Below, piece by piece: positions 13,931-17,522 of a stretch of 64,000 nucleotides of DNA. The position numbers and the translations under genes were made by a program. Position 1 is the stretch's first letter, and the number at the start of each line of letters is the position of its first letter. Below the pieces are notes generated by a model, which worked only from the letters and a program-made list of their open reading frames with translations, did not search any database and was not told the origin of the DNA. Origin of the DNA: Dehalococcoidia bacterium (lineage in GTDB: Bacteria; Chloroflexota; Dehalococcoidia; Plut-88900). The DNA lies in contig CBDBLV010000005.1 of NCBI GenBank assembly GCA_965207225.1, forward strand, positions 768,001 through 832,000. Direction: 5' to 3'.

Positions 13931-14017
13931 TGGTGCCGAAGCCCGGACTCGAACCGGGACAGGGTTTCCCCCAGCGGTTTTTGAGACCGCCGCGTCTGCC
14001 TATTCCGCCACTTCGGC
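13931..14017 (-). tRNA. tRNA-Leu(CAA)
   Basis: GCCGAAG acceptor stem, anticodon loop CT-CAA-AA, long variable arm, GTTCGAG T-loop, encoded CCA. Confidence 0.97.
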
Positions 14018-14043
14018 CTAACCCGCCTGCGGGCTTAAATGGA

Positions 14044-14119
<76 letters not shown>

Positions 14120-14231: not shown

Positions 14232-15104
14232 TTGACCAAGTCCCTCAACGTTGCCTCCCTATCCCCCGGCGACGGCAAGTCCACCATAATCGCCGCCCTC
14301 GCCCGACACTTCCAGTCCCTCGGCAAGACCGTCGATTGCTCCGCCCCCGACCCCATGAAATCCCTCCTCGGCCTCTCCGACTCCCCTCCCAACCCCGACA
14401 TCCTCATCACCGATTCCTCCGACTCCCAATCCGACGCCTCCCTCCTTGTTGTCTCCTTCTCCCGTGACCTCGACCTCGACGCCGTAAAACCCGCAGCCAA
14501 TGCTCTTGGCGACGGTTTTCTCGGCGTCATCATCAACCGTGTCCCCACCTACGGCGCCCGACTCGCCGAAAACACCCTCAAGCCCTCCCTTGAAGCCGCC
14601 GGCCTCACTGTCCTCGGCCTGGTCCCTGAATCCCGGGCCCTGTACGGCATCACCGTCGACGACCTCATCAACCGCCTCGACGCCCGCTACGCCCTCCAGC
14701 TCGAAAGCGGCGACGCCCTCGTGGAGCACGTCATGGTCGGCGCCAACGTCCTCGATGCCGAGGACTTCCCCGCCGGCCCCGAGTACTACGCCCAGCGCTC
14801 CAACAAGGCCGTCATCGGCCGAGGTGACCGCCCCGACTTCCACTGGAGCGCCATCGACACCCCCACCCGCTGCGTCATCCTCACCGGCAACTTCGAACCC
14901 ATCCCCTACCTCCTCGCCAAGGCCGAGGAGCGCCAGGTCCCCGTCGCCGTCGTAGATAAAGACACCCTGGACGTCATGGACACCCTCGAAGACATCTTCA
15001 ACGGCCCCTCCCTGGACTCCGGTGCCAAGCTCACCGCCTTCACCTCCCTCATCGAAAGCTCCGTCGACACCTCTGCCCTCGACTCAGCCCTGGGCGTAAA
15101 CTAG
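14232..15104 (+). CDS. BioD-like P-loop/DRTGG-domain protein (phosphotransacetylase N-terminal-like)
   Basis: GDGKS P-loop; KAVIGRGDRPD...CVILTG DRTGG signature; TTG start. Confidence 0.8.
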   Translation: MTKSLNVASLSPGDGKSTIIAALARHFQSLGKTVDCSAPDPMKSLLGLSDSPPNPDILITDSSDSQSDASLLVVSFSRDLDLDAVKPAANALGDGFLGVIINRVPTYGARLAENTLKPSLEAAGLTVLGLVPESRALYGITVDDLINRLDARYALQLESGDALVEHVMVGANVLDAEDFPAGPEYYAQRSNKAVIGRGDRPDFHWSAIDTPTRCVILTGNFEPIPYLLAKAEERQVPVAVVDKDTLDVMDTLEDIFNGPSLDSGAKLTAFTSLIESSVDTSALDSALGVN

Positions 15105-15240
15105 CTCCCACAACAGTCTCGCTCCCATAGACCCGCCCCCCATCCCTTCTCCAACATCCAACCCCCAACCCCCTCCCCATCCATCATTCCCGACCCCGAT
15201 CGGAAATCCATCCCCCTCCCCCCCAAATGTGACATACCCC

Positions 15241-15269
15241 TTGACATGCAAACATTTGAGCCTTATATT
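15241..15269 (+). promoter_or_regulatory. sigma70-type promoter upstream of the candidate ncRNA
   Basis: TTGACA-17 nt-TATATT in an AT-rich patch. Confidence 0.7.
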
Positions 15270-15387
15270 TGTTCTAAGTCTAGACCCAACACTAATTTTA
15301 AGGAGGAACCAAAAACCCGGGGAAGCCCCCGAGACCCGACCCGAGGACTCAACGCCCTAGCCCATCCCAAGACCTCGCCCCTCTCTT

Positions 15388-15412
15388 GTAGGGGCGACCG
15401 GCCAATCGCCCC
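15388..15412 (+). repeat. GTAG-family REP-like palindrome
   Basis: GTAGGGGCGACCGGCCAATCGCCCC; related copies at 36679-36703 and 56977-57001. Confidence 0.75.
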
Positions 15413-15498
15413 CCCTTGCGAGGAAGGAAGGTTGCGGCACAAGCGAACGTCGCCATCTCCTCATCCCACCGGGTCCCGTGCTCCTTCCCTGGTAGTCA

Positions 15499-16036
15499 GG
15501 CGATGGAAAGACGCCCTGGATAGAAGCCACAGCGGACCGGCCATTCCCCCGCCGAGAGACCCTCTCGGTGGCTGGTTAGCAGCGAGCTTACGCTATATCA
15601 AGCTAGGGGTGGGACGGACCGGCCATCCCCGCCCGGGACTGGCTTCCGGAGGTTGGCCCGTAGGCGAGCTTACGCCATATCAAGCAAGGGGAAATGCGGG
15701 CCGGCTCTACCCCGCCGGGACCGGTTCCCGGGGGTTGGCCCGCCGGCGAGCTTGCGCCATATCAAGCGAGGGGTTTGCTGGACCGCCCAGACCCGAGGGT
15801 GCGCGCCACGTAAAGTAACTCCCGGGGGCTACCCGCCGATCACTGGCCCCCACTGCGCCCTTAGGCGCCTGGGAGCGGGTCAAGGCCCGGCTGTCCGCCC
15901 GAACACCCGGGCACACATCGGGCAGAAGGGTGCGGCCGGCTGCAATCCGCCCCCCGGCGGACCTCCATGGCCCCCGACAGCCGAGCACCGCAAGAGAGTG
16001 GAGGCCACCGGCTCACCAGGTGCGTCTTCCATCGCC
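15499..16036 (+). ncRNA. candidate large structured non-coding RNA (family not recognised)
   Basis: Terminal helix 15499-15519/16016-16036; three 82-nt covarying modules; many additional stems; G-U wobbles favour the + strand. Confidence 0.6.
15532..15777 (+). repeat. 3 x 82-nt imperfect tandem repeat
   Basis: Core RGCGAGCTTRCGCYATATCAAGC at 15581, 15663 and 15745. Confidence 0.92.
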
Positions 16037-16127
16037 GCCCCAAAACCCACCAGACAGAACGGAAACCAAAACCCACAACTGAATAGCAATCCGGTGTCTC
16101 CCCTGCTTCCCCAGCAGACACGCACAG

Positions 16128-16156
16128 TTGCCAGCCTCCGCCTTGATTTATATAAT
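16128..16156 (+). promoter_or_regulatory. sigma70-type promoter of speD-speE
   Basis: TTGCCA-17 nt-TATAAT, ~45 nt upstream of speD. Confidence 0.75.
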
Positions 16157-16199
16157 GCGTCCTCTACGCGTGTGTAAATCCACTACGGGGGGCGGGTGA

Positions 16200-16574
16200 T
16201 TGAATGTCCTCGGAAACCACTTACTGCTGGAACTGAAGAACTGCGACAGCGTCCTCTTGGACGACCTGCCCTACGTTAGAGATGCCCTCATCTCCGCCGC
16301 CGAGCAGATGGGCGCCCGGGTCCTCGGCGAGTCCTTCCACAAGTTCCACCCCCAGGGCGTGACCGGCGTAGTCCCCATCTCCGAGTCTCACCTCTGCATC
16401 CACACATGGCCCGAGCACCGCTACGCCGCCGTAGACGTCTTCACCTGCAGCCAGACCTTCGACCCCCACCGCGTCGCCGAATTCCTCATCGACAAATTCG
16501 ACTGTAAGGACCCGTCCTTGATTGTCGTCAATCGGGGTATCCTCACCCCGGTCCCGGTCTCCCTCGGCTCCTAG
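16200..16574 (+). CDS. speD: S-adenosylmethionine decarboxylase proenzyme (SpeD/SpeH type)
   Basis: FHKF.PQGVTG...SESH..IHTWPE..YAAVDVFTC. Confidence 0.95.
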   Translation: MNVLGNHLLLELKNCDSVLLDDLPYVRDALISAAEQMGARVLGESFHKFHPQGVTGVVPISESHLCIHTWPEHRYAAVDVFTCSQTFDPHRVAEFLIDKFDCKDPSLIVVNRGILTPVPVSLGS

Positions 16575-16607
16575 CTAACTGGATTTCAAGTAGCGAAAGT
16601 TCGAGCC

Positions 16608-17522
16608 ATGACCCGGGACCCCAGCACCTGGTTCAGAGAGTCGGTATCCGAGGATCTTTACCAGGAAGCCAGGATCTCCGACATCGTCTACTCCGGCCGG
16701 AGTCCCTACCAGACAATCGAGATCATAGACACCCTCCCCTTCGGCCGCACCCTCGTCCTCGATGGCAAGACCCAGTCCTCAGAGACCGACGAGTTCATCT
16801 ACCACGAGATGCTCGTCCACCCCGCCATGATCACCCACCCCAACCCCGAGACCGTATTCATCGCAGGCGGCGGGGAGGGTGCCACCCTCCGGGACGTTCT
16901 TTGTCACAAGAGCGTCAAGCATGCCGTCATGGTAGACATCGATGAGCAGGTGGTGGAAGCTTCCCGCCGGCACCTTCCCGCCTGGCACGCTGGGGCCTTC
17001 GACGACCCCCGCACCACACTCCTCTACCAGGACGCCAGGGATTACCTCGAAAACACAGACTCTACCTTCGACGTTATCTTTATCGACCTCTCCGATCCCG
17101 TCGAAGGAAACCCCTCCGCCCTCCTCTTCACCGAGCGCTTCTTCAAAGTGGTCCGTGACCGGCTGGCCCCCGGTGGCATCATGGCCCTCCAGGCCGAGAC
17201 CGTTGACTACCTCCGCACCGCCGCCTTCACCGCCATCTGCCACACCCTCGCCCAGGTCTTCGAAAAAGTCCTCCCGTACCACATCGTTGTCCCCAGCTTC
17301 AGCGGAGACTGGGGTTTCGCCACCGCCAGCCGGACCCTTGACCCGACAACCCTCTCCGAATCCGACATAGATTCCGCCCTCGCTTCCCGCCTCACCAGAC
17401 CCTGTCGCGCCTATGACGGCAACACCCACAAGGGCCTCTTCCTCCTCCCCCGCCTCCTCCGCCAGGCCCTCGCCGCCGAGACCCACGTCCTCACCGAATC
17501 CAACCCTCTCATTGTCCCCTAA
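16608..17522 (+). CDS. speE: polyamine aminopropyltransferase (spermidine synthase)
   Basis: LVLDG..QS...DEFIYHEMLVHP, GGGEG, VDID, FDVIFIDLSDP. Confidence 0.95.
   Translation: MTRDPSTWFRESVSEDLYQEARISDIVYSGRSPYQTIEIIDTLPFGRTLVLDGKTQSSETDEFIYHEMLVHPAMITHPNPETVFIAGGGEGATLRDVLCHKSVKHAVMVDIDEQVVEASRRHLPAWHAGAFDDPRTTLLYQDARDYLENTDSTFDVIFIDLSDPVEGNPSALLFTERFFKVVRDRLAPGGIMALQAETVDYLRTAAFTAICHTLAQVFEKVLPYHIVVPSFSGDWGFATASRTLDPTTLSESDIDSALASRLTRPCRAYDGNTHKGLFLLPRLLRQALAAETHVLTESNPLIVP

Follow-up and report, generated by a model that had tools for sequence, protein, structure and literature searches.

HEARO RNAs are found in many copies per genome, and the ornate RNAs OLE, ROOL and GOLLD are spread across many taxa at low copy number. 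Here we describe an element at positions 15499-16036 of a 64,000-nucleotide stretch of DNA from a Dehalococcoidia bacterium (hereafter the window), whose nearest kinds are multi-copy structured RNAs and interspersed mosaic repeats. Among structured RNAs, the HEARO/omega RNA of Limnospira is an intricately folded non-coding RNA of 343 nt that is tied to a mobile element, and OLE, ROOL and GOLLD form homo-oligomers composed of RNA only (PMC12286853). Among interspersed repeats, those of the MITE (miniature inverted-repeat transposable element) type have been reviewed in PMC3184786, populations of REPINs persist for long times (PMC8049555), and some clusters of repetitive extragenic palindromic (REP) sequences are transcribed into non-coding RNA (PMC4550694). 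The element resembles each of these groups in part; in the membership tests run for HEARO/omega RNAs, ornate RNAs, MITEs, and REP sequences or bacterial interspersed mosaic elements (BIMEs), it came out as a member of none.

The earlier note on this DNA had proposed the stretch as a candidate stand-alone RNA in the size class of OLE/ROOL/GOLLD, though not clearly one of these, closed by a long-range helix. We found instead that it makes up the body and clamp of a single unit in a family of small non-coding units that is dispersed and genus-specific. In the genome that contains the window (G000; 4.03 Mb in 5 contigs, 92.3% complete), the body recurs four more times at 81-92% identity, and two further places share only the arms of the helix. 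A leader profile identified 41 units, all of which carry GGCGATGGA followed 176-531 nt on by TTCCATCGCC or a near variant. Seven more units, termed type D, have identical arms with a different promoter, leader and trailer. The arms GGCGATGGAA...TTCCATCGCC enclose every body in the 41 main-type and 7 type-D units, and because identical arms recur in this manner the clamp is not a product of chance. The 41 main-type bodies, of 180-530 nt, comprise 10 sequence-unrelated classes with 14, 10, 5, 2, 2, 2, 2, 2, 1 and 1 members, and the body in the window belongs to the class of five (class I).

Alignment of the copies places the limits of the repeated unit at about 15218 and 16090, promoter included, beyond those of the stretch first noted, and the transcript of the window unit is likely to be longer than the helix-closed stretch as well, at about 15278-16122. 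The copy number of the element had been overlooked, as had three tandem modules of ~82 nt within its body (Table 1). A single-copy RNA comparable to OLE, ROOL or GOLLD would account for the size, the dense pairing, the long-range closing helix, the lack of coding potential and the absence of an Rfam family. It is already contradicted by the counts, one genome having no fewer than 48 clamp-closed units, five of them with this class of body; moreover, the common leader and tail lie outside the helix and the range of the element is one genus. We regard this alternative as extremely unlikely.

Main-type units follow a common order: a sigma-70-like promoter, a start-codon-less leader opening on a Shine-Dalgarno mimic, the clamp around the body, and a C/A-rich tail with either a hairpin or a complete terminator module behind it. 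Three promoter modules, A, B and C, occur in 8, 18 and 12 copies in G000 (38 versus 41 units), and the listed copies lie just upstream of a unit. These modules differ in sequence and keep a TTGAC(A)-like -35 box, a spacing of 16-18 nt and a -10 box. An A[AG]GGAGGA motif is present in 38 of the 41 copies; the AAGGAGG within it is complementary to the 16S rRNA 3' end ...CACCTCCTT (C4:512292-512336), where the CTCCTC pairing was read by eye. Small hairpins and REP-like modules nested in the leader make its length vary from 96 to 334 nt among the copies. Conservation of the clamp covers its outer 10 bp, and the inner extension of the helix is specific to the body class, being GACGC/GCGTC plus CCTGG/CCAGG in the window and GGTCC/GGACC in the two largest classes. 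After the tail, other copies have hairpins such as CCGGTGT...ACACCGG that resemble the one at 16093-16122.

The long-range helix reported at the window locus was borne out both by the pairing and by the minimum free energy fold. Positions 15499-15519 (GGCGATGGAAAGACGCCCTGG) pair with 16016-16036 (CCAGGTGCGTCTTCCATCGCC) over 10+5+5 bp, with a single-base bulge on each arm. A repeat finder recovered the outer 10 nt as 100% complementary at a spacing of 518 nt, and the fold of 15499-16036 retains the helix together with the inward AGCC/GGCT pairs that had been noted. The plus strand folds at -278.8 kcal/mol (z -3.61; 0/100 shuffles as stable), which agrees with the claim of a strongly structured interior; for the reverse complement, z was -1.57 and 5/100 shuffles were as stable. 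Each ~82-nt module of the body contains two hairpins and a possible CCCC/GGGG pseudoknot, the latter read by eye, and class I copies with only two modules leave a gap of 81-85 columns in the alignment. The upstream promoter and the separate promoter of the downstream gene speD are likewise where they had been proposed (Table 1), and near the element two promoters were found against 0.2 expected in shuffles.

To assess conservation of the structure we used an alignment of 37 distinct class I bodies from six genomes. Their RNAalifold consensus contains 101 pairs, 12 of which have compensatory double changes; the pair counts that follow use a second consensus of 140 pairs. Standard pairs occupy 94.6% of cells, compared with 37.7-43.4% when the partners are slid, and 15 pairs are changed on both sides (2-10 when slid). 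Cells with double changes number 136 against 46 +/- 10 in shuffles, none of 500 shuffles reaching 136, and the covariation score is 0.128 against 0.094 shuffled and 0.03-0.06 slid. Clear compensatory cases are hairpins with GCGCC/GGCGC, CGCAA/TTGCG or ATGCC/GGCAT depending on the copy. G-U and A-C cells stand at 448:77 on the plus strand and at 303:186 in the best minus-strand fold. Covariation among homologues, which the earlier note had named as a check, is thereby found in excess of shuffles, and the plus-strand G-U bias that it had reported holds across the homologues. The covariation and the G-U excess, as far as the alignment goes, support a structure on the plus strand.

A protein-coding gene was rejected for the class I body on the basis of gap lengths, codon phase, broken frames and Pfam. 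No more than 5 of the 52 gap runs have a length divisible by three; the variable columns per codon phase (73, 74 and 80, out of 137 per phase) show no phase bias; the longest stop-free stretches have medians of 57-78 aa out of 153-184, with no frame staying open; and the three open reading frames (ORFs) overlapping the body have no Pfam match.

The element is also absent from Rfam, as the earlier note had anticipated. At gathering score, Rfam 15 gave only three matches in the window, all tRNA and two of them overlapping one tRNA gene. At E up to 10, the region 15100-16300 gave three chance matches with E of at least 5.5, and at E up to 1 the best match among twelve other units had an E of 0.05, all matches being to eukaryotic or viral families. 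OLE, ROOL, GOLLD, HEARO, raiA, RNase P, transfer-messenger RNA (tmRNA), signal recognition particle RNA, group I and II introns, riboswitches and Chloroflexi-1 were each without an Rfam match. The listing in PMC2864571 gives Chloroflexi-1 (RF01698) in Chloroflexus aggregans only. ARAGORN found no tRNA or tmRNA in 15100-16200, and literature searches found no description of this element.

As a putative large folded bacterial RNA linked to mobility, the element recalls the HEARO/omega RNA of IscB-IsrB. It differs in having neither an Rfam match nor a TnpB-type match, and in having its own promoter, a leader and tail common to the units, and interchangeable bodies of ten or more kinds. With OLE, ROOL and GOLLD it shares a length of hundreds of nucleotides, many helices, a non-coding nature and a function unknown at discovery. 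However, those RNAs are Rfam families, none of which match, and the units described here are modular, are confined to one genus at 23-58 per genome, and have been gained and exchanged between loci.

Candidate partner genes were sought with Pfam models whose controls were scored in 14 genomes. G000 has no match to TnpB (PF07282; control positive in 8/14), to the Y1 transposase of REP-associated tyrosine transposases (RAYTs; PF01797; 6/14), to the IS110 recombinase (PF01548; 6/14) or to TROVE (PF05731; 2/14). RRXRR (PF14239), used to search for IscB, also had no match, but its control was positive nowhere and that search is uninformative. An OMEGA guide RNA was set aside given the lack of a TnpB match, the IscB search counting for nothing, as were an IS110 bridge RNA (no IS110-type recombinase match) and a Y RNA with Ro60 (Rsr; no TROVE match in the genome). 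Rho_N, RNase J and RNase III each have one match above cut-off in the genome. G000 further contains four reverse-transcriptase loci (C2:158087, C5:1548409, C5:1553608-1554405 and C5:1671488-1672288), two of which have identical scores and 586-aa frames; no link from any of them to the units was made.

The family is restricted to a single genus. BLAST found the unit in 8/8 other genomes of the genus, but not in the three further genera of its family or the 29 further families of its class that were searched; two weak matches outside the genus comprise only the REP-like palindrome of the leader. A covariance model built from the last 90 nt of the leader and the 5' arm (R1), with up to 150 candidates scored per genome so that counts may be lower bounds, matched 400 units in the nine genomes of the genus (G000 41, G008 37, G001 40, G005 58, G007 38, G002 57, G006 52, G004 23, G003 54), and none either in those three sister genera or in another 145 genomes from the class. 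Scanning 185,579 species for exact 19-mers returned 78 stretches. Records titled 'MAG: Dehalococcoidia bacterium' account for 69 of these, and one lies in another Dehalococcoidia metagenome-assembled genome, where R1 confirms it at 73 bits; the remaining 8 are single matches in unrelated taxa that scored at most 18 bits with R1, or not at all, and are due to chance.

The placement of the units relative to genes is strongly oriented. The downstream gene lies on the strand of the unit in 37/40 cases (one-sided binomial ~1e-8 under 1:1, with copies that are not independent), and for 25/41 units the gene upstream lies on the other strand. Gene calls were made with a simple codon-usage caller, on which this count rests, and promoters after other units were read by eye. 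This placement avoids reading against the neighbours. It would also suit a mobile promoter and attenuator that controls the downstream gene (speD-speE in the window), for instance through conditional Rho-dependent or intrinsic termination in the tail. Such a cis-acting leader is in keeping with units that point at a downstream gene, often within divergent promoter regions, that end 27-540 nt before it (1364 nt in one case), that at both empty-site loci were inserted just upstream of the -35 box of the downstream promoter, and that have a C-rich, G-poor tail.

The genes themselves argue otherwise. Of 40 downstream proteins, 20 were scanned with Pfam and gave 19 domain architectures, only Amidohydro_2 occurring twice; they are unrelated in function and include UvrA, ribosomal protein S15, a KatG-like peroxidase, deformylase, Lgt, peptidases, amidohydrolases, transport proteins and an IS481 integrase (locus L081, rve/IS481, an insertion confirmed by Pfam). 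A riboswitch-type leader was rejected because the neighbours scanned are unrelated and because speD keeps its own promoter, which is also seen in relatives that manage without the unit. In addition, a full terminator module lies no more than 300 nt downstream of 13 units, and different body classes occupy one locus in different species. A role as a cis-acting leader is in our judgement very unlikely.

Comparison of orthologous sites indicates how the units are distributed between species. The window locus is filled in G000, G008, G005 and G007, and is empty in G001, G002, G003 and G006, where the upstream stop codon lies 0-43 nt before the speD promoter region. At the same site G004 has an unrelated insertion of ~459 nt (L073:1035-1500) with inverted ends of ~19 bp (GGTACTGTCTCAGTTTGAA...) and an apparent 8-bp duplication (GGCTAGCC); this textbook MITE looks quite unlike the RNA unit. 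The locus of the closest paralogue is filled in G000, G008 and G005, and in the remaining six genomes 31-162 nt separate its flanks. At two other loci the site is filled in distant species too, and some insertions are therefore old; units have been gained at different times within the genus, to judge from these alignments.

These sites also bear on the possibility, raised in the earlier note as a refutation, of dispersed MITE copies with target-site duplications. The many dispersed copies and the presence/absence differences are indeed there. The duplications are not, the two empty/filled junction pairs sharing only the microhomology CAC or ACTC (3-4 nt), and no direct repeat adjoins the arms in the printed copies. 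Moreover, although the arms bound every body in the manner of terminal inverted repeats, the ends of the whole inserted block have no such repeat at either site pair. MITEs thus resemble the units in their inverted arms, their length of 0.2-0.55 kb, their many copies, their subfamilies with the same arms and their variable presence, and differ from them in that the units lack a target-site duplication at the sites compared and a transposase partner among the families searched, are promoter-driven and branched, and show compensatory changes. REP, BIME and REPIN sequences are likewise mosaics of short palindromes in intergenic DNA, and REP-like modules occur in the leader here; the units, in contrast, are 0.6-0.9 kb long, with their own promoter, long branched bodies and no match to a RAYT-type Y1 transposase.

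The bodies do not stay with their loci. The window body is 93.5% identical to a paralogue 45 kb away and 89.9% identical to its G008 orthologue (L001/L019), and that paralogue shares 81.7% identity with its own orthologue, which is 95.6% identical to a third G000 locus. Paralogues within a genome reach 98.5% identity, and for 21 of 37 bodies the nearest relative is in the same genome. In the two trios of near-identical paralogues compared, from G007 and G008, body plus clamp was copied between units: the near-identity begins at the 5' arm and stops at the 3' arm or ~14 nt beyond, and the leaders and tails differ; the odd leader is the one without the REP-like module in the G007 trio and one of another type in that of G008. 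The arm-to-arm stretch is therefore a real exchangeable module, and it coincides with the coordinates that the earlier note had chosen. At the orthologous site, the G008 unit uses promoter module C, not module A, and between it and the upstream gene lies a 384-aa ORF (L019:141-1295, minus strand) that, by eye, looks like an IS481/IS3-type integrase.

Inverted arms 500 nt apart and arm-bounded exchange between copies might also be expected of an invertible DNA switch, in which a site-specific recombinase flips the segment between inverted repeats. Among the 41 bodies compared all against all there were 0 minus-strand matches, and so no flipped copy; 37/37 class I homologues are collinear with their flanks, and the promoter lies outside the arms. 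We give this explanation next to no credence. A search for sequencing runs listed 23, none of them recorded as RNA. In four contig runs over 14600-16800, depth at unique parts of the body equals that of the flanking genes (~14 in X1, ~30 in X2), and the runs therefore behave as DNA. The contigs break at repeated parts, and the three listed joints are skips explained by other members of the family; the list has no joint that changes strand, which says little on inversion since contigs drop rare variants. Other runs, labelled sponge, coral or marine metagenome, share a small part (0.12-0.26) of the words, and no habitat is drawn from them.

A more serious alternative is that the units are purely selfish, MITE-like DNA, in which the arms are terminal inverted repeats moved in trans, the pairing serves recognition of DNA or single-stranded DNA, and any RNA is incidental. 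Inverted arms of 10-21 bp bounding bodies of 0.2-0.55 kb, with several classes sharing the same arms, are what this explanation would lead one to expect, as are the high copy number within one genus only, the variation in site occupancy between species, recent copying bounded by arms, and the other small repeats nested in and around the units. It fits less well with what was found at the ends. No direct repeat flanks the arms in the printed copies, and at the two site pairs, with 3-4 nt of microhomology only, the inserted unit is the whole block from promoter to hairpin rather than the arm-bounded part. Bodies never occur outside the context of a promoter-driven leader and trailer, and they are branched rather than simple long palindromes. 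No match to PF07282, PF01797 or PF01548 was found in a genome that is 92% complete, and no pair of arms 0.6-6 kb apart encloses a gene-sized insert, other transposase families not having been searched with the arms in mind. Finally, three unlike promoter modules that keep their geometry, together with the 37/40 co-orientation, point to selection on transcription. We consider purely selfish DNA plausible but unlikely.

We lean, with guarded confidence, towards the view that this is an expressed family of structured RNAs that propagates as cassettes. Our best reading is that its members are self-propagating, possibly domesticated RNA genes, and not a regulator of speD. Each unit would be transcribed on the plus strand from its own promoter into a stable structured RNA. 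In rRNA operons, long-range stems that are RNase III substrates flank structured RNA, and Bacillus mRNAs carry 5' stabilisers of the Shine-Dalgarno type. The units resemble these in their ~20-bp flanking stem and in a ribosome binding site that lies close to the 5' end and lacks a start codon, both read from sequence; the genome encodes RNase III and RNase J. By analogy, the binding site might hold a 30S subunit and shield the RNA from RNase J, the ~20-bp clamp could be the recognised part, either as an RNase III-type processing or protective stem or as a docking site for some factor, and the C-rich, G-poor tail may load Rho.

Several points weigh against this reading. Transcription, RNA ends and processing are all predicted from sequence; the functions proposed for the Shine-Dalgarno mimic, the tail and RNase III come from analogy; and no partner protein, target or phenotype is known for the units. 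High copy number, presence/absence variation, mosaic make-up and a range of one genus resemble selfish DNA, and the orientation count depends on a crude gene caller. Strand bias by itself cannot separate RNA from selection at the level of DNA, because hairpins of single-stranded DNA also tolerate G-T pairs. The paired fraction is inflated because one alignment served both to derive the structure and to count its pairs, the counted changes are not independent events because the sequences are paralogues and kin, and the outer clamp has no covariation of its own because it never varies.

A bolder extension, which we think rather unlikely, is that the bodies are RNA-encoding mobile cassettes that move between promoter-equipped docking units, with the units landing beside host promoters. 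Movement would follow a clamp-specific route without a classical transposase, possibly mediated by RNA through a genomic reverse transcriptase or catalysed by RNA, and the ~400 RNAs of the nine genomes would form a functional, diversified ornate set recognised through the invariant 10-bp helix.

The features of the window locus and the positions of the type-D units are collected in Table 1. By Pfam, the gene upstream of the window unit encodes a DRTGG/CbiA protein, and ARAGORN places tRNA-Leu(CAA) and tRNA-Phe(GAA) on the minus strand (13931-14119), with 1.1 kb between them and the unit downstream. The direct repeat GGAACCAAAAACCC (15305-15318, near the start of the leader) and GGAAACCAAAACCC (16061-16074, in the tail) could have arisen by chance in low-complexity sequence or could form a terminal direct repeat of the unit.

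Table 1. Features of the window locus, with the type-D units of the same genome (G000).
Feature	Position	Strand	Basis or remark
Inserted block including upstream spacer	15105..16122	+	Absent at the orthologous site in four relatives; junctions share only CAC
Small hairpin repeat ATTCCCGA...TCGGAAAT in upstream spacer	15186..15207	+	Separate short repeat; motif also downstream of other copies
Sigma-70-like promoter TTGACA-17-TATATT (module A)	15241..15269	+	11/12 matches
AAGGAGG, perfect Shine-Dalgarno mimic opening the conserved leader	15300..15306	+	No ATG/GTG/TTG in next 12 nt
Shared leader, ~200 nt here	15300..15498	+	nhmmer and covariance-model matches
REP-like palindromic module inside leader, core GTAGGGGCGACCGGCCAATCGCCCC	15373..15423	+	Absent from short-leader copies
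Clamp 5' arm	15499..15519	+	Outer 9 nt GGCGATGGA in all 41 main-type and 7 type-D units
Body class I, branched non-coding structure	15520..16015	+	Alignment and structure counts; overlapping ORFs without Pfam match
Three tandem ~82-nt modules within body	15535..15790	+	Period 82, 2.4 copies, 81% matches
Clamp 3' arm	16016..16036	+	Pairs with 5' arm
C/A-rich, G-poor tail ending CACAACTGAATA	16037..16090	+	6 G in 54 nt; common to main-type units
Terminal hairpin GGTGTCT...AGACACG, no U-run	16093..16122	+	Last part of inserted block; missing at empty sites
speD promoter TTGCCA-17-TATAAT, outside element	16128..16156	+	Also in relatives without element
speD (S-adenosylmethionine decarboxylase), downstream neighbour	16200..16574	+	Pfam AdoMet_dc, E 9e-38
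Type-D units	C2:179536, C5:1005080, C5:1737119; C3:167328, C3:255807, C5:1330718, C5:1189888	not marked for the first three; - for the last four	G000

Some of the units and their surroundings in G000 show further variations. In six of the seven type-D leaders AAGGAG is followed by ATG, opening a candidate small ORF that runs into the 5' arm and whose first 25 codons, examined by eye, have synonymous and non-synonymous changes alike. A terminator module (AGTAYYRAACTAGAGG with a GC hairpin and T-run) is repeated in 102 copies and a palindrome (GGGAGAGGGGGA..AAGGGGG) in 95. These two repeats often adjoin each other and flank the RNA units, as downstream of C4:237475 and C5:315466; 19 terminator modules stand upstream of units and 13 downstream. 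The mini-hairpin CCCCGAGAAGTCGGGG recurs at varied positions in leaders and flanks (e.g. L005:1393-1430), like a small insertion module. One unit, at C1:66970-69728, is split by an insertion of ~2.6 kb whose reverse-strand translation, by eye, has the look of an IstB-type ATPase from an IS21 element. Between the unit at C5:67901 and the next gene downstream, a promoter-like sequence of ~29 nt, TTTGTACACCCCCGACCCTCGGGGTAGA, is tandemly duplicated (C5:68257-68380).

If transcribed, the units would amount to ~400 promoter-driven structured RNAs in nine genomes of one uncultivated Dehalococcoidia genus, built on one scaffold with at least ten bodies, and would be one of the largest among bacterial families of large structured RNAs. 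Such a family would join ornate non-coding RNAs and interspersed repeats, which are usually separate fields. The same body in different scaffolds, different bodies at one locus, and filled and empty sites in sister species are natural experiments, and comparisons of this kind could show how RNA genes arise, spread and are tolerated beside host promoters. The conserved clamp gives a concrete starting point in the search for a protein partner or an enzyme that processes the RNA. Even if the units are selfish DNA, an arm-bounded element that has no target duplication or known transposase and is always set within a transcription unit of its own would be unusual among mobile elements.

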